DNA of 63,410 bases, the filler included, from Folioceros fuciformis (taxonomy: Eukaryota): NCBI GenBank assembly GCA_049999805.1. It is 11 parts of 11 records of this genome, joined end to end, with 100 filler letters (N's around TTAATTAATTAA, not from the genome) between each part and the next. Parts side by side here need not be neighbours in the genome. Positions count along the whole stretch, not along the records: positions 39,288 to 47,142 come from JBNGIO010002157.1; 10 more parts are not named here. One strand, written 5' to 3'. Shown here one piece after another: positions 36,621-51,100 of this stretch (position 1 is the stretch's first letter; each line of letters begins with the position of its first letter). Position numbers and translations under genes: made by a program. Below the pieces are notes generated by a model. That model had not been told where the DNA came from, made no database searches, and saw only the letters and a list, made by a program, of their open reading frames with translations.

Positions 36621-39187
36621 TTACGCCGTTCGTTCCACATCAGCTGAACCTGAAGGGTCCTCAGAGTAACCCGAACCAGGTACCTGAGATCTTGAATTTA
36701 CAGGGGGAGAAGGAGACGTAGGCCCCCTTGCCAAGTGGAAAGAAGGTCTGCCCGGCAGTCTCGTCATCTCCCGAACCCCCGAAAGCAGAGCAGCCCGCTG
36801 TGGATTGAATAGCAACGAGTGTTGAGTATCCGGCTGCAGCATGTTAAATATGGCACGCAGGTCACTTCTTAGTTTCAAGCAGACTGGATTATCTGCTGTC
36901 CCATTCCCACCCCGTTGAAGAACCTGCACAACACCACAGGAAGGTGACTCAGAACTCAGACACTGGAGGGGTAGTTGGGAGTCGATCCACACCGCTGCTT
37001 GCATATACACACATCACATCTTACTGAGCTTAAGATTCCGGGTGTGATAACAGCACACATGCCAACTCGTCGACCAGGCCCGGAGGCAAACCTGTATCTC
37101 TTGAGTCAAGTGCCGCTCTACAGATGAAAAGGCATCCACAATCTCCACTTCACTCATTCTTGACAAATAGGCATTGATATCAGCTGACGTGCGAGCCAGC
37201 TTCCATGTCCTTAGTTGTTCCTGCTCAGCTACAGCACGCCGTCTTTGAAACCATGGCATGAAGTTGGGCCCCTTCAAGAAACGCCTGCAAAGTATGATTA
37301 GCTGGAACTTAGTCGAGGCCGAACCCGTTTGACAACCTCACTTCCCTAAAGTAGCTCGCATACCCAGTCCTTTTGACCAATGCAAGCATGATGCATCCCC
37401 ACCAAGTTCATCGTGCTCTGGAACACTTGCGGAATGCTGCAACTGCATACAGGCATTACGACAAGAGAGCATCAAGACACTTCACCACTTACCTGTATAG
37501 ATCAAGCCAGTTATTTCGTAGACGCTTGGAGAGGAACTTCCCAGGACCCCTTGCAGCAAGTCCTTCAATGAACTCATGGGCATCAAAAGGAGGAAGCGGT
37601 GGAGGATCAGCAAAAGGGGATGTCCCTTCCTGAGGAGTTTTCCCTCTCAAGTAAGGACCAAAAGGAGCCAAAAAGTTGGTTGTCAACTCCAAAAAGTGTC
37701 GCCGCAGTATCTCATTGTTCACAACCGCCATTGATTCCTCTGCTCTCGAATTCGTGCCCGCATCAACCAGGCGGTTGAGAACTGAAGTGTCCGGCTTGGT
37801 GGCTGCCACATAGTTTGTCCACAGAGTTTCCTTGTGTTCAGTCATGAGGGACAGAGGTCCATCTTTTCTAGTGCGGGCATTCTTGAGGAGATTGATGGGT
37901 GAAAACCTCTTCAGTGGCGACAGCTGCAATTGCAGCTGGGTCCGGGTAACCGCGTTCCTGATTCCATTCTGCGAGCTTGACCTGGAGACAGACTTCACCC
38001 GACTTACAGGGCCAGGGGCAACACCCACTGATACGACATGAGGCAGGTTCTTCAAAGCTTTCAGGAAAAATAGGTTTGTGACACCTAACAACATAGGAGG
38101 AGGTTGATCTCCTTCTTTCAAGACATTGAGGAGAGAAAAATCAGGGTCGTGAATGGTGAAGTAAGGACGGAAGTCCACACTGCACGGGAGAGGAGCTACT
38201 AGACCTACAAGGGATGCAAGAGCCTCGCAACATTGAGATGGAGTTGGCGCAACGACCAGCAGCGGCTCTCCCACCAAGAGCAGCTCCCACAGCACCCAGA
38301 GCTGCATCAAAATGCCCCTGAACATGCCAAACAGGTCAGACTCGTGGAAGATTCCCTGAGGTATGGACTTGGTCAAGGGTGCAACCGGTGCCATGGCCGA
38401 GGTGAAGTCATCCATCTGGCCTCCAGACCCAGGAGGCAGAGTATGGGCTGGAGGCAGATGAGACTTTATCACCACATTCCCCACTGGCAACTCCATCTGC
38501 CCTCCATGCACGGGGGCCGGCCATTGCGACACATAAGAAGCAATCTTCTCCAAAGCCTGTGCACCAGTGTCAAAATACAAAGGCCCCACGATCTGCACCA
38601 GGGGCTTGAAAACACATAAATAAGGCCGCTCCGATAACACAACCACCGACTTCTGCTCGCCACCTCTCTTCAACCTCTCATCCTGACGCTGCCTGTTGAA
38701 CACAAAGCCGTACAAATACCGAGGACCCCCACTCCCGGGACCTCCGCGACCTCTCTGGTAGGAACCATTCCCCTTCTCCTTCCCCACGGTGCCTTCATCC
38801 GAACCCTTTCCCTGTCCAACCTCCGCAGCCGCAAGATCGCCCTCCCTCACCCTAGGCTTGGATGGAGGAGTGGGAGGAAACAACCCCGAGCCTAGAAACC
38901 CTACACCCGAATCCTCGTCCCCTGCCAGCCTCGTTACATCACCACTAGACGCTCTCCTGGGAATCAAAACCTCAGCTGAATTCGGGCGCACCAAGGACTG
39001 CAAGGACCGGGAAGGAGACGGCGACGAGCCTTTCGTCCTGCTCTCAACCCTAGACCCCGGAGACAGCCTCCTCGCAAATCCGACGTACAAATCCTCACCA
39101 ACCCTATGCCCCCAAGAATCCTCCGAAGTATCATGCGCGGACGCAGATCGGCCGTGCCGCACGCCCATGACGTGACCAGTCCCCGGC
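36621..39187 (-). CDS. DENND6: DENN domain protein 6 (DENND6-like Rab GEF), 5'-truncated
   Basis: YLYGFVFNRQRQDERLKRGGEQKSVVVLS, LWELLLVGEP, DFRPYFTIHD, LLGVTNLFF, LRRHFLELTTNFLAPF. Introns 37285-37492 and 36924-37091; stop at 36621. Confidence 0.9.
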
Positions 39188-39287: not shown

Positions 39288-40452
39288 ATGCTTCGTTAAC
39301 TGCCATTTCGCGGCGCACGCCGGGCAGTGCGAGGCCAGGAACGGGAACTTCAGGGAGATCGCGGACCAAATCAGAGTGGGAATCCCCGGGGTGGACATCC
39401 TCAACCAGTTTCATCATGTCTTCTGGCTGGGGGATCTCAACTACCGGCTGGACGTAGAGGGCGAGGACAACGGCAACGGTTCCGGCCACAGCTCCAAACA
39501 CCAGCAGCAGCAGGAGCAGTGGAGGAGCGTGGTGGAGCGCATCCGAAGAGGGCAGTTTGCGGGGCTCCTGCAGCGGGATGAGCTAGGGCGGGAGAAAGCC
39601 GCGTCCAGGGTTTTGCACGGGTTTCGGGAGGGGGAGATAACCTTTCCCCCGACCTTTAAGGTGAAGCGGGACCTGGTGGAGGAGTACCAAGAGAAGCGGG
39701 TGCCTGCGTGGTGCGATAGGATTCTGTGGAAGGATCTTCCAGGCTGCGCTGCGGAGTTGGATTCCTATACCTCGGCTCCGGGAATGCTCACCAGCGACCA
39801 CAAGCCCGTGGCCGCGACATTCCACTTCACGGCCCGGGCCATGCCGTGCGTGAGCCCGTCCGCAAGCAGGCTCCAGGCGGAGCAGGACAGCAGGTGGAAC
39901 ATCCACTTCACGGCGCTGCGGGCGAGGGATCTGCGGCCGGCGGATATCAACGGCTTGTCGGATCCCTACGTCTCGTTCGTCGGGCCCGTGCTGCTGCAGG
40001 AGGTGCACTCCAAGGTGAAGCCGCGGACGCTGAACCCGGTATGGAACCCCGCGCACGACGTGCCTCCGCTCGTGCTCTCGGTCATGACGCTTGAGCGGGT
40101 TAGGATGAATTATTTGCCGGTGCGGGTGCTGGATCGGGATTACACGTCTGCGGATGATCACATTGCGAATGGTGTCATCCCGCTGGCCGGCTTGGTGGAT
40201 GCGTTCGACCGCGGCGTCTTCGCGCAAGAGCAGTACGTGCAGGAGCAGGATGCGGCCACTACCTTTGAGGTGGAGCTTACCTTCAAGGGGCTTCCGGCAG
40301 GGGTGTTGGAGGGCGCCTTCCGACTCTCCTTCCAGCACAGCGACACCAGGAAGAGGAGTCGCATGCGATCCATGCTCGTGGACCGCACGCTAAGCTTCCG
40401 AGACAGCGTCTTCAAGCAGATGCTATCTAGGCGGCATGTGCACGAAGCATGA
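39288..40452 (+). CDS. Inositol polyphosphate 5-phosphatase with C-terminal C2 domain, 5'-truncated, intronless over the visible part
   Basis: CFVNCHFAAH, HHVFWLGDLNYRLD, FPPTFK, VPAWCDRILWK, SDHKPV; then a C2 domain ARDLRPADINGLSDPYVSF..TLNPVWN..VLDRDYTSADDHI. Confidence 0.92.
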
Positions 40453-40550
40453 AAGGCTGTGGGTTCCGCCCTCGTTTACGGAACAGGGTTTTTTTAGTGG
40501 TAGGTACTGGAGTTCCGGGTCGGATTTTGGCTTGGCCGGTCAAGTATCTG

Positions 40551-40715
40551 TCTTCTTTCTCTCTCCCTGGGGTCATCTCTCTTCTTTCTCTCTCCCTGGG
40601 GTCATCTCTCTTCTTTCTCTCTCCCTGGGGTCATCTCTCTTCTTTCTCTCTCCCTGGGGTCATCTCTCTTCTTTCTCTCTCCCTGGGGTCATCTCTCTTC
40701 TTTCTCTCTCCCTGG
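40551..40715. repeat. 29-bp tandem repeat, ~5.7 copies
   Basis: ctggggtcatctctcttctttctctctcc at 40567, 40596, 40625, 40654 and 40683. Confidence 0.95.
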
Positions 40716-40916
40716 CTCATTTCCTTTATGCCCTTCTCCTAGAATCGTGTGCACTTCGTGTAATCTCCTTCTCCGTAAGAAATGGATCTGAGTTGCCACA
40801 GCCGAGCAATCTCTACGATGAATCATTTTCTCAGCCGCACTTTGACCTAGGCCAACCATTCTCACACAATCTATCACATCGGCCTTCCAAAAAATCGCAG
40901 AGGCATTGGATAGCGG

Positions 40917-41215
40917 AAGAATTGGTAATAGCGCAGGGTGCAAGAAGGAATAATAGCAATAACATAGACAAGAAGGAATAACAGGAATAACATAGATAAG
41001 AAGAATTGGTAATAGCGCAGGGTGCAGGAAGGAATAATAGGTAATAGCGCAGGGTGCAGGAAGGAATAATAAGAATAACATAGACAAGAAGGAATAACAG
41101 GAATAACATAGACAAGAAGAATTGGTAATAGCGCAGGGTGCAGGAAGGAATAATAGGAATAACATAGACAAGAAGGAATAACATGAATAACATAGACAAG
41201 AAGGAATAACAAGAA
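40917..41215. repeat. Compound A-rich tandem repeat (~84-bp unit with sub-repeats)
   Basis: Recurring ggtaatagcgcagggtgcaggaaggaataa and aataacatagacaagaagg. Confidence 0.85.
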
Positions 41216-41272
41216 GACAAGAGGGAGGGAGCAAAGAGAGGACCAAAACAGGAGCCTAGTGATGGGCAGCTA

Positions 41273-43284
41273 TTGATCAAGGTGTCATCCGGACTGCTGC
41301 CCTATGCTAGAACAAGTGGGAGGCTCTCTTCACATATTACAAAAAAATCAGCGACTTCCACAAGACCATTTCAAGTGGGAAGGATGGATATTGGGCGATG
41401 GATTCCAAAACCAGAGCAAGCTATTCTCTACTTGCCAATTTCTTTCAAATTGTATAGAATCATGTCGATTCTTGGTGTGGTAAGAGTTGTGTTGTCAATC
41501 CAGAAGGGCTTGTTTTTTACTCATCTAGCATCAATTCAGAGAGTGCTGCAAACCATGAAGAATTACATGGAACTTTTGGTTTGGATGGAACTGACAGACC
41601 GAATGAAATAGACACACCAGATACATATTATGACGTGGAAAATAACGATACAGGTACTTCTCTTGTGAGGGTCTTTCCTAAGAAGAGGGAAAAGGCTTCC
41701 AAAAGTGTTCAATGGTTGCTCCCCATTTTGCAGCAGAAGAATGAGGTGTTGGTGAAATCAATGCACCAAAGACACATGAGAAGGAACGCGTAAGTGACTA
41801 ACTAAATAATGCCCCCTTCCTTGCGCAGAGTGAAAGGAAGCAACGGCCTTGAATCTCGTCTATTCACTCCGCAGTGCTCCACTTACAAATCACTCACTCC
41901 CTCTCACACGACTCAGCAATAGGCTCCAAGTAGCCCGCCGTCCACTGACGTCTCGCAGACCACCTCCTCTAGGTGCTGCTCTTTATTCAAGATACTTACA
42001 AAAGAGTCTAGCTATCTACGCCCCACTAGATACTGCTCTAGACTCAATCTGACAAGCTTACTCTTCAAGCCCTCCACAGCTATGTCTCAAGGCTAGACTT
42101 CTCACTGTCTGCCTCTCTCTCTTTGTCTCTCTGTGTATCTCTGTGTATGTCCTTAAGACCTTAACACTGGCCTATTTGTACTCCACAGCTAAGCCACTGC
42201 CAAAGCTGGGAATGATATACACCACTCATCTCAAAATACTAGTGGTCATTACAACTCCATCCTTCTTAGGAGGTTTTTCCTGGAACACACATCTTGTTTC
42301 CAAAGGCAACAAGAAGCATACTTGCTTCTTCATCAAGATAGCTCTAGATTTAACTTTCACGTTTCTACTTTTAACTTTCACCTTATTTCACTTGTGCCAT
42401 ACTCTCTCTCCCACTAGGAAGGTGTCACTGTCCTCAATGACTTGCAGTATAACGTGAGATCATCCATGATCCTTGTTGCACATCTTAAAGTGAAACCCAA
42501 ACAAGATCTGCAAAATCACGAAGCCTTACTAGATACTCTAGAACATTACTACGGACAGAAGGCACTTCTCTTTCTGCTAGGAATTCTACAATCTCCTGCA
42601 GACTATGGTTATATTGAACCAGGATAACATAGTCTTTCATGTTCATGTCTTCATTCTCTTTCGAAATCACAAACAGTTTTAGCAAAGAGACATGAAACAC
42701 ATCATGAGAGAATATCCAATTAGGCAGTTGTAGTTTGTAAGCAACATTCCCAATGCGCTTCAGAATGACAAAAGGACCTCCATACTTAGGCCTTAACTTT
42801 GGGGACTGTCCTTGAGGTACTGGGAAGTGCTTCAACTTTACCCAAACCTTGTCACCCACTTGAAATTCTACCTCTTTCCTGTGCCTATCAGCAAACTTCT
42901 TTTGCCTATCTTGAGCTTTGGCCAAAATGCTCTTAGCAATTTCATGCCTGGCCCTCAACTACTCAATAAAGTCATGCGGTTCTCTTGCTGCTATCTCAAA
43001 CACGCTAGCATTCAGCATGGAAACTACGTCCATTGCTTCGTTACCTATCACCTGGAAAGGTGTATAGCCTGTGGAGCTATGTATCGTATTGTTATAACAG
43101 AACTCTGCATCCTCAAGATGATTTCAAGATGAAGAGACATAGTGAGATGCTAGAATTGGAAATTAAGAAACTGGAAAAGTCTAAACAACTAGCAACAGGT
43201 AACAATAATGCTATGGCCAGTATAGGAGATAGCTTAAGATACTTAGGAGAATCCATAGTTAAAGCAACACAGAAACAGAACTAG
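41273..43284 (+). pseudogene. PIF/Harbinger ORF1-type Myb/SANT (trihelix) DNA-binding protein, decayed and split by a gypsy remnant
   Basis: Frame from 41281 reads GVIRTAALC*NKWEALFTYYKKISDFHK..GYWAMDSKTR (trihelix helix 3 plus tail) to 41793. A coiled-coil C-terminus resumes at ~43100-43284 (LELEIKKLEKSK..LGESIVK), convergent with the transposase. Confidence 0.7.
41810..42960 (-). mobile_element. Chromovirus (Ty3/gypsy) 3' remnant: integrase C-terminus + chromodomain, PPT, 3' LTR (~41810-42399)
   Basis: FQVGDKVW..PKLRPKYGGPF..VAYKLQLP..HDVFHVSLLK; chromo-like EYLVR..VWVS. Minus strand GGGAGAGAGAGTA|TGGCAC at 42412-42394. The distal LTR end is approximate. Confidence 0.8.
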
Positions 43285-43289
43285 CTAGC

Positions 43290-44666
43290 TAGACCAAAAC
43301 TCTAGTAGCTATGCCGCCTACCCCTCTCATGATGTGGGGTAGCATTCCACACATGTTCAATTAAGACTCGCCACATTTTGTGTGATTCTACAACATTGTC
43401 TGCAACCAAACCTGGTGCTTGCACAAGGTCATCATTTCAAGAGTGTGAGTATCCCTCGTACAGTCTTGAATCCACACGGTCACCGCAATCTACAGCAATG
43501 TTATGTAAGATACAACAAGCATATGTAATCTTGGCAAAGTTTTCAACCTTCATCCTCCATGTCTTGCACAACACATTTTAGGTCTCCAAAGGCACATTCT
43601 TTGACTATCCTACTTGAGGACTGCTTGTAATTAAATAGATAACACTTTGTATCCAATCCTCTTTCTCGTACTAGTGTGATCAACCAGGGCATATCAAGGT
43701 AGCCAGCATCTTCTAACAGAAATTCATGCACAAACCCACCTGGCAAAAGAATTGGAGGCCCATGCAATCTTGTACCTGAAAAGACAGCCTTGTAAAAGCT
43801 AGCGTTCCTGAAAATTCGAGCATCATTCGCACTACCTGGCCAGCCAGTTACGATATCCAAAAACTGCCTGTCAGGCCCTACAATGGCTTGCATAGCCATA
43901 ATGTACTTGCTGTATCTTCCATACCAATCTTTGGCAAATTCTTGAGCTCCAAGTTCCACGTTGAAGTGAGTAGCATCGATGGCTCCACAGCAGTTTGGAA
44001 TTCCATGCATCCTAAGAAACCCTTCTTTGACCAAAGTCAGACCTTGGTCACTAGGCCATGCCAAGTGGACTTTACCACAAATGAGAAGGGCTCTCACAAA
44101 TCTCATGCAAACATTGTGAATAGTGTTAGTGCCAAGATCAAACAATTCACCCAAACTGAAGTAACCATCTCCAGTTGCCAATCTCCGTAAAGCCACAGCA
44201 ACCTATTTATCAATATCCAAGGCTTTATTGGGTATGCTGTCAAACCCATCAACCCGTTGGGTGAGCATCTTAGGACTTACCAATCCATAGATGTATGAGA
44301 ATGAGCTTGGCTTGAATCGGAAAAACCACTTGAATCTAGCTTCATCTTAACAACAACACCTTTATACAAAAGCCAAAAATCCTTGACACAAGGCTTGATG
44401 AAGTAGGCACCGTACTGTAATCCATTCCACAAGCTTGGAGGGATTCTATGGAAGGAGGCAAGAAGCGCTATGTAGCCATTCAGTCCAAGGATTGCTGTTT
44501 GAAGCTCCAAATTCGTGATCTCCAATTGTCGGGATAGTAAATTGGATGTAGCCTAAGTAGTATCACCCAAATATGGAAGGCACTTTGGATCTCCAAGCAT
44601 AGTTACGAGTGCGGCTATAACATTGACCAAGAATGACAATATTATTTCCAGCATAGATGCGTCCAT
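43290..44666 (-). mobile_element. PIF/Harbinger DDE transposase (HARBI1/ALP1-like), decayed
   Basis: ATG 44666; FKWFFRF..FSYIYGLV; VAVALRRLATG; IPNCCGAIDATH; GWPGSANDARIF; DAGY; FNYKQSSSRIVKECAFGDLK. Contains stops and frameshifts. Confidence 0.9.
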
Positions 44667-44969
44667 AGCTCGGTGATCTTACACCTTCATGGACACAAAC
44701 AGAAAGATGCCTCACATCTCAAAAACTAGCTATTCTGGTTGACCTACTAAAAGACCGGCATCTGGCATTTAAGACATGTATCCGAATATTCTTTTTGCTG
44801 CAAAGGTCAATAAAACCAAAATTAATGAAATAAACAGTTTGAGTCTTGTACGCAAAACTTGGTATTTCGCAACCCTAAACATATGGTGCGCCGGTCAACC
44901 AGTGCACAATCTTTTCAAAGTACTTCAAGTTCAAGTTCATAACGAGCTCAAATGAAGTCAAGTTTATTG

Positions 44970-46225
44970 TCAAACAAAAATAGGGTCGTCCTGGTTGGCT
45001 TCGGAGTCCACAACTACATCTAAATCTCTCAGCCGTTGTGCATCTGTATCGCCAAAGTCATTGGCATCAACTCGTAGCACCAAGAAGTTGGGGTCCTCTG
45101 TGGTTTGGGGCGGCAAAGTACAATTCTCATCCCAGACAGTGATGGCGTAAAGGTCTTCCGTAGGCCTATCATCAATCTGGGATATGACCTCTCCTTTCTT
45201 GCCCAACATACTGAACACCATCAGTTTGCGGTCCACGCTCCCATCACCGCACACTTCCTGTGCCCAAAACTTTGATGGGCCTCACGTAAACGACTCTGTC
45301 GTAATCTCCTCATCTGCGTGAGGCAAAGGCCCTAGCCCGATAATCCGCTGCATAATATATGAAGTGCACTTGACATCCACATCAATAGCCACCGCATGCC
45401 TTCCATGCTGAACTACACTTTGGAGAAGAGATCCCGAGCTTGCGCGCCATGCATCAACCACCCAGCCCCCTCACAAGAAAACATATTAATTAGCATACTC
45501 ATAAACCCTAATGGTTTTTGGTAAGGGGAGACGACATGCGCATCTGCTGAATGAAAAAGGTGCTTCTTCACCACCGCTGCATGTCTTATAACCCTTGGGA
45601 GCAAAAATCCATGATTCACAAAAAGTACAGCCTTCGATTCTTGGGCCTTTGTTTGAATTGCACTCCCAACAGTGACATATTCAACTATTTCCACTACCCT
45701 TGCGTTTGGGGGTATGTTCGTCTTCTCCCATACCAGTGTCTGAATGCTCCCCTTCTTGCACCATGGCTGCAGTGCCTCCCTTGCTTTCGAAATCATATCT
45801 ACTCCGTGCATTAGAATAACTCTAAAAATATTGCTCGAAGTGCATTCACTGACCCCTCGGAGCATTTCATCTAACTCGGCTACCTTCATTTGCTTGTCAT
45901 ACTCATGCTGTTGCAATCCCCGAGGCTGGTCTGCAAATAGCAGCGTATAGGGGCATTTAACAAGAAATGCCTTCATTTCCAGTACATTTCTTTGAATAAC
46001 CTGGTATTTTACCTTTGACTTACTCGCCGGAACCCGAAAATCCGATAGCCCTACGTCCATATCGGCTGCCGCCAGCTTATGCTTCTCCTCTTCCATCCTT
46101 TTCCATTTTTTCGCCGAATATACAAAATCCTAGAATGGCTTCGGCAGTGACTCCAAGTCTGCTATCTTTGAAGGTTTCTACAACCAGAATTGTACACATT
46201 AGTCTGGCTACCGATAAAGCTACTT
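44970..46225 (-). pseudogene. Beta-class amino (N6-adenine/N4-cytosine) DNA methyltransferase-like pseudogene
   Basis: Catalytic-motif-IV-like LLFADQPRG, then W.KTN..EY, then HVVSPYQKPLGFMSMLINMFS. After a frameshift at ~45467: WVVDAWRASSGSLL..GRHAVAIDVD (SAM-binding motifs I-II). One in-frame TGA (45282) links to a C-terminal ORF ending at 44970. Confidence 0.75.
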
Positions 46226-46242
46226 AAACATGAGTAGACATG

Positions 46243-46355
46243 AGTGCGCCGGTACACCGGCGCACTGATGCGCGCGAAACGTCGACAATGCACCGGTAGA
46301 CCGGTGCACTCATGCGCGCGAAATGTTGGCAGTGCGCGGGTAGACCAACGCACTG
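46243..46355. repeat. Three tandem (~44-bp period) GC-rich palindromes; a fourth copy at 44886-44907
   Basis: agtgcgccggt-ac-accggcgcact (perfect), tgcaccggt-ag-accggtgca (perfect), cagtgcgcgggt-ag-accaacgcactg (degenerate); gtgcgccggt-ca-accagtgcac at 44886. Confidence 0.9.
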
Positions 46356-46369
46356 GAGCCCGCTCGGAG

Positions 46370-47142
46370 GGAGCAAAAAACAAAGGATAGTTGCGGACAA
46401 TGTCGTTGAATATCATTTGGCACAAATCAAATCAAAACTGGAGATGCGATTACGACAACACTTAGGACCAGGCGAGAACTTGTGGTGGGATGGGTTTTGG
46501 GCAGAGCAAGAGGCTATCATGCATTCTATAAACTCTGGTGTAGACAGAGACCTTGATTCTCCTTGGTGGTGGTATAATCGGGAGGCGGCAGAATTATTGA
46601 ACACACCCGTAAATGTACCAGACGCAATCGTTGTTCACAATCCACGCATCCGCGAGCTTCCCAGAAGAAACATGTATGTGGGGGCATACTGTAGGGAGAC
46701 AGACCTCAATGACGACAGCGAAAGTTTGCACGGGGATATAACCGAAATAGAAAAAGGGCTTATGATTGCAGTCCCTTGTAAGACTGACGAAGACAATATT
46801 AGATTGGATTGCCGTTTTGGATTGCCAAAGTCTTAGAGGCAGATATTACATGCGAAAAACCATATGTCAAAGTGCACTAGTGGGTAACCAAATGTTCAGA
46901 TGCTTTTGAGGGTCGTTACCAAGAAGAGATGATTTTACCACATGAAGCTCCGCCAAGAGGGTTACGTGGCGGTCGCAGACACAAGTCAAGCAGAAGACTT
47001 CGGAAGCATATAGATACATTATTCATTGAAGACACTTTTATTCTAGCATATGGATTTGACTTGACACGCCAAAAACAGCTTCCCTCCCGAACGAGGACTC
47101 TTATTTGCAGAAACCTATATGTCCTCAATCGCGACCAGGATA
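46370..47142 (+). pseudogene. 5'-truncated TE-like ORF, probably the C-terminal region of a DNA-transposon protein
   Basis: Continuous across a frameshift at ~46800 and one TAG: ..MIAVPC..GLPFWIAKVL..VKVH*W..FEGRYQEEM..ILAYGFDLTRQKQLPSRT. Family assignment is from motif resemblance only. Confidence 0.5.
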
Positions 47143-47800: not shown

Positions 47801-48199
47801 TAGCCAATGCCCTCACCCTTTATTGCCGGACCGGGGAGTTGAGTTCAACATGCTCGTACATCGAAACCCATGAAAGGTCTATTACGACCACGTTGGCAAC
47901 AAAAACATGTTGTTCTCCCTAGATGAGGAAAGGTCAACTCGAAGAGAACTACTATTAAGTAGCGTATATAAAGGAATTAATGGGGTTAGTTATAATTTTA
48001 AAATCAGTTACATTCACAATAATTATTCAGACCAATATAAGTGACACTTTCTAAATAAAGTAAAGTAATCGTTTTTCATTCTTCATCTACCTACTTTCCT
48101 TAAGTATAAGTGTATCTTATTTGCTTGAGTATGGGCGCTCCCTGAAAGGTAGAAAACCTGCCTCCTTAGCCAACAAAAACATGACATCACACACAATAT

Positions 48200-51100
48200 T
48201 GAATGAGCACAAGATAGCATTCAGAACCTGCCATGGCCACTATGAGTGGGTGGTTATGCCCATGGGGCTCACCAACGCACCAGCAACCTTCCAGTGCGTG
48301 ATGCAGGACATTCTCTGGCTGTTGTTGGGGCAAGGCGTAGAAGTGTTCCTCGACGACATCCTGATCCATTCTGCAGATGCAGAGACCCACATCAACCTGG
48401 TTAGAGCTGTCCTATTACTCCTGCGAAAGCACCACATGTTAGCCGGGAGGAGCAAGTGCACCTTCATGTGCAAGGAAGTGGACTACCTAGGACACATCGT
48501 CACGAGGGATGGCATTAGGATGGACCCCCGCAAGGTCCAAGCAGTCACAACATGGCCATTACCCACAGACATCACCCAGCTCAGAGGGTTCCTGAGACTT
48601 GCAGGATTTTACCGCTGATTTATCTAGGGGTTTAGTAAGATTGCCTTACCCCTGACCGACACCCTGAAACAATCCCCCAGCAAATCTTTCAATCTGGATG
48701 CAGCAGCACAGCTAGCCTTCACCCAACTGAAACAGGCTCTGAGCTCAGGGCCAGTTTTGGCGGTGGCAGATCCCAAGGGGATCTATCATGTGCACACAGA
48801 TGCATCAGATCTTGCCCTTGGGGTTGTTCTGTCCCAGGAGAGACGAGCGATTGCCTACGAGTCCCACAAGCTCCAAGGAGCACAAGTTAATTACCCAGTT
48901 CATGACAAAGAAATGCTTGCCATCATCCATGCACTCAAGGTCTGGAGACATTACCCACTGGGACAGAGGTTCACAGTGCATACGGATCACCATTCCCTCC
49001 AGCATTTCTTCACCCAACCCAACTTGCATGCACGACAGCGGAGGTGGTCAGAATACTTAGCTGATTTTAACTTTGAGATTAAGTACATCACTGGAACCTC
49101 TAGCTCGGTAGCAGATGCCCTCAGCAGGCGAGCTCTCACTTTGATGACCTGTCAACTAGATACCATCAAGCTCGTCTGAGCAGCCATCCTAGGAGATCCA
49201 CACCTGCAGCAGATCTACTAGCAGTTAGTACAAGACACAGCAGAAGGCATTCCCACAGCTTTGATGTAGACTTACCAACTCAAAGACGCTTGTGTGTACA
49301 AGAAGGGTCGACTGGTGATTCCTCAACAGCTGAAGGAGACCCAGAGAGGGATCCTGCACGATCTGCACGACTCTCCCATCTCTGGACACCTAGGTATCGA
49401 CAAAATCTATGAGCGGGTGAAAACCCATTTCCACTGGGAGGGCCTGCGAAATGATTGCATACAGTGGGTCGGAAGCTACACCTCCTGTCAACAGACAATA
49501 CCATAGCATCAGAAAACACCAGGGTTGTTGTTACCTTTACAAATACCTGAGGGAAGATTCTAGTCCATCTCCATGGACTTTGTGACTGCCCTTCCCCGCA
49601 CTCGTACAGGAAAGGACAGCATATGGGTAATTATGGACAGAATATCCAAGTGCTGCCATTTCATTCCAGTCAATTCCAACGTTACAGCTCCACGATTGGC
49701 CAACATATTCACAAAAGAGATCTTCAGGCTTCACGGGTGCCCCCAGAATATTGTCTCAGACCGGGACCCCAAGTTTATAGTCTGGTTCTGGCAATCCTTC
49801 ATTGAAACCCTAGGCATCCGACAAAGCTTGTCCTCCACATGCCACCCCGAGTCAGATGGTCAGACAAAGCGTCAAATCCAAGTGCTTGAAGACATGATGC
49901 AGCATTACACACAAGACAAGCAAGGCAAGTGGGAGGAACTCTTACCCCTCCTCGAGTTTGCCTACAATAGCTCCAAGCACGCCGCCATAGGAGTATCCCC
50001 CTTCAAATTGCTGTATGGCGAGAATCCATCACCACCCGGACTCTGGCCAGTCAGCGACGCCAAGTGGAGAAGTGCAGCCGAGGTTGCAGAGGACATTTGG
50101 CATGAGGTCTACAAGGCCAAGCAGAATCTCCTGTCAGCTCAAGACCGGGCCAAGAAATCGAGCAACAAGCACAGGCAGGAAATCTCCTACAGCATCGGAC
50201 AGCTAGTGTGGTTGCGAATCCGCCCTCACAGGTATCTGTCACTTCTCCAGCAAAAACACAAGTTGGCATATCGATTGCAGGACCCTTCAAGATCTTGTGC
50301 AAGGTCAACGAAGTTGCCTACACACTGGAGTTGCCTACTGGGTGGCGCATGTGTCACACCTTCCATGTGAGTATGCTGAAGCCAGTGATCCAGAGACCGA
50401 CCCAACTCGACCCGCCGCCACCTACAGACCCCGCCACTCAAGACAGTCTAGAAGCCCTAACCGCCACGGACAATCTTGCTACCCCACTAGCGTAGGACAA
50501 CTCTCCAAGCTCTCCTACCACAACCAACCCGACCACCAGACCCCCGGTATCAGTTACACCCCCTCAACCAGAAAGCACGACACGGAAGCGGAACAGATCA
50601 CCCCGCCATCCCCAGCTCGCCAACCTTGTCCAGCCCGACAGAATCCTAGAGGTACGCACCCGTGACCTCATAAACCAATCTGTCCGTGATTACTTGGTTG
50701 GATGGAGCCAAGAACCAGACTCTTCTGCCACTTGGGAGCCAGAAGATGTTTGCAGACAATTTCCCCACCTCAGCCAGTAGCTGGAGGGCCTGGAGGACCA
50801 GGCCTCTTGCAGTGGGGGAGAATGTCACGATCGCCAGGAGCTGGAACGCCCGTAACGATCACCAGCAAGGAGAACGACACTGCAGAGATGGCTGGAACCT
50901 GCTAGGTCTAAGGCACCAGATAGGGTACCCACAAAAATCCCGATTTTCGATTATGACAATGTGAACCCGAACGGGTATGAGAAAAGGCATGCTAGATAAA
51001 GTATACTTAGATGAGCTATTTGTAAGCGTTACCTAAGCTAGGGTAATTAGAATAATTAGGATAGTTGCCAATTTACCTTAGGAAGTAGTTAGAGTCCGTT

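Follow-up and report, generated by a model that had tools for sequence, protein, structure and literature searches.

Why does the genome of the eukaryote Folioceros fuciformis hold the broken remains of a gene that resembles a bacterial DNA methyltransferase, and does that gene belong to the host or to a repeat that carried it there? The stretch of DNA that we analyzed (the window) comprises 63,410 bases of GenBank assembly GCA_049999805.1 and consists of 11 contigs joined at ten linker sites (3798-60575) by N44-TTAATTAATTAA-N44. The methylase-like gene lies on a contig of 7,855 bases (JBNGIO010002157.1; window 39288-47142). Because the window is made of joined contigs, physical linkage to the gene is confined to 39288-47142, and features across the linkers are not its genomic neighbors. 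The original prediction, made from the sequence alone, had described a beta-class amino-methyltransferase remnant embedded in DNA rich in transposable elements; those surroundings turn out to lie mostly on other contigs. We consider it likely that the locus is a decayed, nonfunctional gene copy carried in a repeat that is dispersed in many copies and is most probably a DNA transposon.

The assignment to the methyltransferases comes by way of relatives. A 238-amino-acid (aa) piece of the window gene matched 13 proteins at E ≤ 1e-3 (best, 6.3e-16) in a HMMER search of 1.84 billion representative proteins. The same piece had no match at E ≤ 10 in a sequence search of the Protein Data Bank (PDB) and no relative in a word-indexed protein search at near lengths. 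Pfam recognized no family at E ≤ 10 in three window pieces or in a read-through with the TGA codon set to X, whereas eight of the nine relatives scanned passed the gathering score of PF01555 (N6_N4_Mtase), the ninth being a 229-aa fragment without the C-terminal half. The direct Pfam match foreseen for the window gene therefore failed to appear, and the match of its relatives stood; membership in PF01555 is transitive, because the window pieces match the relatives' profile and not Pfam itself. That profile, built from 14 family sequences from elsewhere with no row from the window, matched frame -2 over profile positions 10-247 (E = 1.5e-52) and frame -1 over positions 246-304 (E = 5.4e-9), and the two matches are co-linear and abut exactly at a frameshift. 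When 18 relatives were compared with the window by tblastn, the pseudogene was the sole real match, one other match being at chance level. A word-indexed search with the family alignment returned eight matches and added a single new member, P0019, to the family; P0020 to P0023 from this search look like ordinary bacterial enzymes. Phage and glycosyltransferase clusters returned by the ESM Atlas for the 238-aa piece (142-153 shared features) were discarded as weak and unrelated looking.

Compared with solved enzymes, the family profile gave E values of 1.8e-8 for M.RsrI, 2.7e-8 for M.BceJIV, 8.1e-8 for CcrM, 1e-6 for M1.HpyAVI, 4e-6 for MboIIA (profile positions 63-278), 2.9e-5 for bdelloid N4CMT, and 0.23 for PvuII. 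An AlphaFold model of the relative P0002 has a mean predicted local distance difference test score (pLDDT) of 59.9, with ~80-94 over residues 70-320 and a disordered tail. In Foldseek this model matched CcrM (1.6e-12), N4CMT (2.6e-10), and PvuII (3.9e-9), as well as M.BceJIV, MboIIA, RsrI, and HpyAVI; against the beta-class enzymes, target TM-scores were 0.51-0.75 and identity was 13-19% over the fold alignments. The Rossmann-type methyltransferase fold was thus found in a relative that is 26-30% identical to the window gene, not in the broken gene itself. The window does show the permuted order of motifs, with motif IV (DQPRG) first, then SPYQKP, then motif I (DAWRASSGS). Taken together, the PF01555 matches of the relatives, the profile match, and the CcrM-like fold of P0002 bear out the claim of a beta-class, N6_N4-type remnant, and structure prediction on P0002 gave the methyltransferase fold that had been expected. 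As to whether the window gene is a METHYLTRANSFERASE relative, its homology to the beta-class amino-methyltransferases is secure, by transitive evidence.

Judged by sequence, the gene's family is a small, eukaryotic one of CcrM/RsrI/MboIIA-like, S-adenosylmethionine (SAM)-dependent amino-methyltransferase-like proteins, whose named members come from the fern Adiantum nelumboides and from Chara braunii. In P0007 (789 aa) and in GBG86584.1 of Chara braunii (1825 aa), the methyltransferase is preceded by an additional N-terminal domain and a helical linker, neither of which is present on the contig of the window gene; P0015 has the linker in common with these longer relatives, and the fern protein has the end of the N-terminal domain. 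By eye this domain has a ParB-like look, which neither Pfam nor a PDB profile search confirmed: an N-terminal profile of P0003, P0007, and P0010 matched methyltransferases only, and no ParB, in the PDB at E ≤ 10, and it matched nothing on the methylase contig. In GBG86584.1 (P0003), two modules of N-terminal domain, linker, and methyltransferase stand in tandem with low-complexity sequence between them, each ~40% identical to P0007; this two-module model may represent adjacent element copies merged by gene prediction. Pattern scans of viral contigs and prokaryotic genomes, limited in reach, found no close relative, and single-protein queries with P0007 and P0013 found no related locus in metagenome contigs.

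The window copy carries five lesions: two N-terminal TAG codons, a 1-nucleotide (nt) frameshift, a 3-nt insertion, and a TGA codon (Table 1). After the frameshift the minus strand reads WVVDAWRASSGS, in which DAWRASSGS is encoded at 45455-45429. Alignment with relatives shows a Ser where the G-x-G loop has its first Gly, and the window copy, with D-A-W-R-A-S-S-G-S, departs from the canonical SAM-binding motif I (F/C-x-G-x-G). The original prediction had named the motifs DQPRG, W.KTN, SPYQKP, WVVDA..SSGS, and AIDVD in this order, a frameshift in a G-run (~45467), a TGA followed by a ~100-aa acidic C-terminal domain, and homology upstream of the called reading frame. All of these were located on the minus strand, the one-base frame change at 45470-45465, the TGA at 45284-45282 with a tail of 103 codons behind it, and the upstream similarity running through the TAG at 46132-46130. 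Similarity probably continues further upstream, past the second TAG (46180-46178). The copy had also been called dead, and we agree in view of its stops, frameshift, insertion, and degenerate SAM loop. One homopolymer error is possible; the window copy is a pseudogene, and this is the safe reading because of the five lesions, the degenerate loop, and a long branch in the tree described below.

The repeat that holds the gene became visible in contigs of three DNA sequencing runs (X1 to X3) from one sample, perhaps the assembly's own, which we aligned to 43400-47142 at ≥85% identity (712, 728, and 493 aligned contigs, respectively). Depth in X1, summed over contigs and therefore not a copy number, was 9-37 over 43400-44774; from 44775 onward, up to where the contig ends, most bins had 170-470, with a dip to 46-115 over the palindrome array region (46150-46399). 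The summed depth of the repeat is thus ~10-40x that of its flank. At the edge, 44773/44774, ten X1 and ten X2 contigs continue with a common different sequence, and the sequence joined there occurs nowhere else in the window. Differences among copies are mostly C>T and G>A, with transitions in excess, and the repeat contigs have many internal joints and loose ends. The picture is one of tens of diverged, dispersed copies, with the window copy cut or interrupted at 44774. The suggestion that this copy marks a family accordingly holds in the form of a multicopy family in Folioceros fuciformis.

Other copies also tell which lesions are private. The TGA is read as CGA (45284 A>G) in 14 X1 and 13 X2 contigs (depth, 167/167 and 218/228), and DQPRG becomes DLPRG (45927 T>A) in 8 X1, 8 X2, and 1 X3 contigs. 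The three nucleotides at 45445, already named as an insertion in the original prediction, are left out in 4 X1 and 5 X2 contigs (about half of the depth), the motif then being D-A-C-A-S-S-G-S. An extra base behind 45465 or 45470 restores E-G-[D/G]-W in some contigs. The runs contained no more than about half of the 31-mers sampled from 44800-46400, which puts the exact window copy beyond read-by-read confirmation.

A tandem inverted-repeat array stands beside the gene at 46245-46376, as it does beside accessory genes of algal elements. The palindrome pattern has 4 matches in the window versus 0 in 100 shuffles. The stretch past the array, 46400-47142, is as strongly amplified as the gene itself; no recognizable coding content was found there (Pfam on four frames of 46413-47141, E ≤ 10), and a frame facing the gene (46432-46836, plus strand) had no relative in the word-indexed protein search. 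Two of the 44-nt units also contain TTTCGCGCGCAT (46268-46279 and 46312-46323, minus strand), with 2 matches in the window versus a shuffle mean of 0.15 (1 of 100 shuffles reached 2); this sequence resembles an E2F-type site (TTTCGCGC).

Table 1. Features of the methylase-like gene, its repeat, and its contig (window positions)
Feature	Position	Strand	Basis or remark
Beta-class N6_N4-type methyltransferase-like pseudogene	44970..46198	-	~400 codons if read through; family profile and tblastn
Second in-frame TAG, near start of similarity	46178..46180	-	tblastn match of P0002 extends to 46198
In-frame TAG in conserved N-terminal helix	46130..46132	-	LPKPF*DFVY; relatives LPxxF[QK]EH..
DQPRG, motif IV position	45917..45931	-	DLPRG in other copies and nearest relatives
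WEKTN, family motif W-x-K-[TP]-N	45716..45730	-	Alignment; W-V-K-P-N in CcrM-like bacterial P0020
SPYQKP, counterpart of bacterial H-P-T-Q-K-P	45512..45529	-	Region aligns to M.RsrI; followed by ..MFSCEG
One-base frameshift in or next to G-run	45465..45470	-	Between ..MFSCEG and WVVD; profile matches abut at 246/247
Degenerate motif I (SAM loop), DAWRASSGS	45429..45455	-	3-nt insertion at 45445-45447; relatives D-G-C-S-G-S-G-S
AIDVD, acidic end of strand 2 (motif II position)	45375..45389	-	Family V-D-[VI]-D, kept in the window too
In-frame TGA, private to window copy	45282..45284	-	CGA elsewhere
Acidic C-terminal tail, 103 codons	44973..45281 (frame end 44970)	-	No family match; in frame with the domain where TGA is CGA
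Three tandem 44-nt units, each with a 22-nt palindrome (GTGCGCCGGT-nn-ACCGGCGCAC type)	46245..46376		Just upstream of the gene
Fourth palindrome copy	44886..44907		63 nt downstream of the stop codon
Many-copy repeat holding the gene	44774..47142		X1 depth; sharp edge at 44773/44774, other side is the contig end
Inositol 5-phosphatase and C2 gene fragment	39289-40452	+	Exo_endo_phos2, 8.6e-40; C2, 2.5e-9
Tandem repeats	~40500-41250		On the same contig
Ty3-type integrase C-terminal fragment	42485-42958	-	SH3_Tf2-1, 6e-21
PIF/Harbinger DDE transposase fragment	43543-44202	-	DDE_Tnp_4, 1e-15

Our working model, drawn by analogy from the accessory proteins that giant algal transposons carry, is that the intact protein would act on the DNA or chromatin of its own element and that the tandem palindromes would be binding sites of the methylase-like protein itself or of a partner protein. 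Several points weigh against a transposon of this kind. On the contig, off whose end the repeat runs, neither terminal repeats nor a target-site duplication nor a transposase belonging to the repeat was found, and the contig's only transposase, the Harbinger DDE fragment, lies outside the high-depth block. In the window pieces and neighboring frames, Pfam recognized neither a SET nor a ParB-like domain, and none was detected by sequence in nine relatives (Pfam) or with the N-terminal profile; the N-terminal domain of P0007 was modeled by AlphaFold at a pLDDT of <50. The nature of summed depth and the origin of X1 to X3 in a single sample count on the same side. So does the frameshift: about half of the depth there lacks the extra base, so the frameshift may be common to many copies, which fits passive carriage of the gene better than a needed function. 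If it is common to many copies, the repeat may have spread on after the gene broke.

An alternative hypothesis is that the gene belongs to a host family that is not mobile, acquired in one horizontal transfer and then multiplied by segmental or tandem duplication, with the window copy as one pseudogene among its members. The missing transposase and termini of the repeat would fit this, as would the small size of the family in databases (13 representatives) and the two tandem modules of the Chara model. The hundreds of short, diverged contigs at 85-99% identity speak against it, together with their excess of transitions, many internal joints, and varying flank structures, because these features are typical of dispersed, silenced repeats; in addition, the noncoding flank at 46400-47142 is amplified as much as the gene. 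We regard a stationary host family as unlikely.

The transposase fragment on the contig raises a second alternative, namely, that the adjacent PIF/Harbinger element owns the methylase-like gene as its accessory (first) gene and that the high-depth copies are nonautonomous derivatives which kept the methylase part. Harbingers normally carry two genes, and the DDE_Tnp_4 match lies on the same strand, ~600-770 nt downstream of the methylase-like gene. HarbingerS elements with a SET-domain accessory gene are described in a Bostrychia preprint (bioRxiv 10.1101/2025.02.11.637652). The depth of coverage nevertheless falls more than 10-fold exactly at 44774, between the methylase-like gene and the transposase, and ten contigs in each of X1 and X2 continue from that position with the common other sequence that is absent from the rest of the window. 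An insertion or rearrangement at 44774 fits this drop and this shared sequence better than a single element does. The Harbinger fragment, which falls outside the block of high depth, probably represents an insertion of its own and not the transposase of this element. A Harbinger origin of the gene is, in our judgment, quite improbable.

Could the gene be intact in the organism, with the lesions introduced by assembly? The frameshift does lie in a homopolymer, a typical site of long-read errors, and half of the sampled 31-mers were missing from the runs, but five independent lesions, of which three are stop-making base substitutions, the many private substitutions (including L>Q in motif IV and the degenerate SAM loop), and the long end branch make this very improbable. 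Bacterial or phage contamination, or an assembly chimera, is hardly credible: the fold and Pfam family are mainly prokaryotic and relatives match PHROG DNA-methyltransferase families, but the same 7.9-kb contig carries eukaryotic phosphatase and C2, Ty3 integrase, and Harbinger fragments, X1 and X2 contigs span 44774 with 0 differences, although these runs possibly supplied the assembly itself, the pattern scans yielded no close prokaryotic or viral relative, and those relatives that have names come from a charophyte and a fern.

At the motif IV position, the original prediction saw DQPR as two substitutions away from DPPW, that is, as decay. D-L-P-R-G-L is present in all five nearest relatives that cover the motif (P0001, P0002, P0005, P0009, and P0015), which are only 37-55% identical to P0002, and other copies of the repeat read DLPRG. 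The canonical motif IV, [DNS]-P-P-[YFW], is accordingly absent from the window copy, from the other copies, and from these five relatives; because relatives and other copies agree, the Arg-containing motif is a conserved trait, and only the L>Q change is private decay. The family is homologous to the PF01555 enzymes, which does not imply that it acts as a canonical enzyme. The eight sister sequences (P0007, P0008, P0010, P0011, P0012, P0013, and both Chara modules) all have D-[IAFL]-P-[YF]-[GC]-F, and three bacterial enzymes in the same alignment have DPP[YF]. The whole family retains P-Y-Q-K-P, W-x-K-[TP]-N, and D-x-[CF]-x-G-S-G ... V-D-[VI]-D.

A 12-row tree with three bacterial outgroups, from which seven short fragments were left out, joins the window copy to P0001 and P0002 (support, 91/91) on a long end branch (1.37) and has the DLPRGL group as one side of a tree branch (76/84). 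Three bacterial outgroups are too few for this tree to bear on the donor. Intact DLPRGL proteins probably still bind SAM, because the SAM-binding motifs are kept in intact relatives. Their base-methylating chemistry may be altered or lost; the analogy that makes this plausible is with inactive partners such as METTL14, which carry degenerate motifs (PMC4738411). A bolder proposal, which we put forward as a long shot, is that the members of the DLPRGL clade are not decaying enzymes but descend from a CcrM-like adenine methyltransferase as a conserved lineage that binds SAM, where an Arg in place of the base-stacking aromatic residue would have brought a new substrate or a regulatory, noncatalytic role and which, with the palindrome arrays, might form a self-recognition or self-marking module that tunes the repeats' own chromatin in charophyte-, fern-, or alga-like genomes.

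The closest described counterparts of the window gene, by analogy, would be the accessory genes for methylases that giant DNA transposons of algae carry. In Ectocarpus, Sola1-1_Ec32 is described as encoding a protein with a ParB-like domain and a 4mC/6mA (N4-methylcytosine/N6-methyladenine) methyltransferase (PMC12477816). The account of red-algal giant Plavaka elements gives PAG2 as PF01555 plus SET and PAG3 as ParB-like plus 2OG oxygenase, with tandem inverted-repeat arrays beside PAG3 and most copies degenerate (bioRxiv 10.1101/2025.02.11.637652), and 66 PF01555 genes are reported from a red seaweed (PMC12115072). Compared by published descriptions, these systems share with ours a PF01555-type domain of prokaryotic ancestry, a gene carried in a many-copy repeat of mostly degenerate copies, a tandem inverted-repeat array next to the gene, and an extra N-terminal domain, here in longer relatives of the window gene. 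They differ in that the window gene and, by sequence, its relatives showed neither a SET nor a ParB-like domain, motif IV is DLPRGL here, and the named relatives are streptophytes. We suggest that the locus would best be filed beside these accessory genes.

The bacterial beta-class N6-adenine methyltransferases (CcrM, M.BceJIV, M.RsrI, M.MboIIA, and M1.HpyAVI) are the best solved matches by profile and fold and share the fold, the motif order, P-x-Q-K-P, W-x-K-x-N, and a kept motif I with the family. They have DPPY where the window gene's family has D-x-P-Y-G-F or DLPRGL, and the setting of the window gene is eukaryotic and repeat borne, with extra N- and C-terminal regions. Marchantia DN4MT1a/b, described as sperm-specific host genes with TSPPY (bioRxiv 10.1101/2021.02.12.428880), and bdelloid N4CMT, described as a chromodomain-bearing host gene whose motif is of the N4C type (PMC8885841), are likewise eukaryotic PF01555-type genes of bacterial ancestry, and N4CMT is a clear fold match (2.6e-10). 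As described, however, they are few-copy host genes with (T)SPPY, whereas the gene here is multicopy and without SPPY; Pfam found no chromodomain in the window pieces or nine relatives, and N4CMT scores worse against the family profile (2.9e-5) than the N6-adenine enzymes do (1.8e-8). The proposed link to these two enzymes, which those sources portray as (T)SPPY proteins and one of which the solved N6-adenine enzymes outscore, is therefore not upheld, nor is the link to 4mC in sperm supported.

Dam-like methylases carried by DIRS and long terminal repeat (LTR) retrotransposons, the LTR forms being reported absent from Streptophyta in the preprint that describes them (bioRxiv 10.64898/2026.05.21.726589), offer another parallel: a prokaryote-type methyltransferase module amplified by eukaryotic mobile elements, with many orphan remnants. 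By that description they belong to a different, Dam-like family with an Asn-Pro-Pro pocket and are linked to a reverse transcriptase or tyrosine recombinase; the window gene, in contrast, has no reverse transcriptase or recombinase beside it. A 2015 survey of eukaryotic adenine methylases, in the part considered here, has no clade that fits the window gene's family (PMC4738411), and our literature search, with supplements outside its scope, found no account of proteins of the DLPRGL type or of the family members from Chara and the fern; the Chlamydomonas v6 paper likewise had nothing pertinent.

The contig that carries the methylase-like gene is eukaryotic because of the phosphatase-C2, Ty3 integrase, and Harbinger fragments on it. 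In the ESM Atlas its phosphatase matched eukaryotic clusters (diatoms, 0.87; chlorophytes, 0.82), scores that serve as no more than leads. Directly after the phosphatase-C2 fragment there is a CT-rich tandem repeat at 40517-40744 (29-nt spacing, six copies), and a 116-nt repeat at 40915-41230 (three copies) also follows this fragment. The Harbinger DDE fragment extends over 43543-44346 (minus strand), with an apparent frameshift near 44202, and is low copy relative to the methylase repeat. A further run, which we took to be RNA (X4), gave a single contig, which matches 44330-44530 and 44710-44761 but has other sequence in place of the stretch that separates them, and nothing else in 43400-47142. 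In contrast to the AT-richer repeats, GC-rich frames run uninterrupted at 37489-39187 on the neighboring contig (minus strand; a 580-codon frame of 565 real codons plus 15 of linker N) and at 39289-40452 (plus strand; 387 codons), and such long frames suggest an intron-poor genome. The next contig (47243-51700), judged by eye from translations, holds a Ty3/Gypsy-like element with polymerase- and integrase-like frames at 48064-50370 (plus strand) and a chromodomain-like tail near 50674-50780.

Mobile elements that bring their own DNA- or chromatin-modifying enzymes represent a newly recognized route by which transposons manipulate host epigenetic control, and in the published descriptions considered here the algal methylase accessory genes have so far been annotated only, not assayed. 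The locus in Folioceros fuciformis adds a very rare family to this picture: it has 13 representatives in 1.84 billion proteins, includes streptophyte members, and conserves an Arg-containing variant of motif IV. The window copy itself is inert, but its family offers a clean experimental contrast: a comparison of DLPRGL with D-x-P-Y-G-F proteins could test whether such accessory proteins methylate DNA at all.

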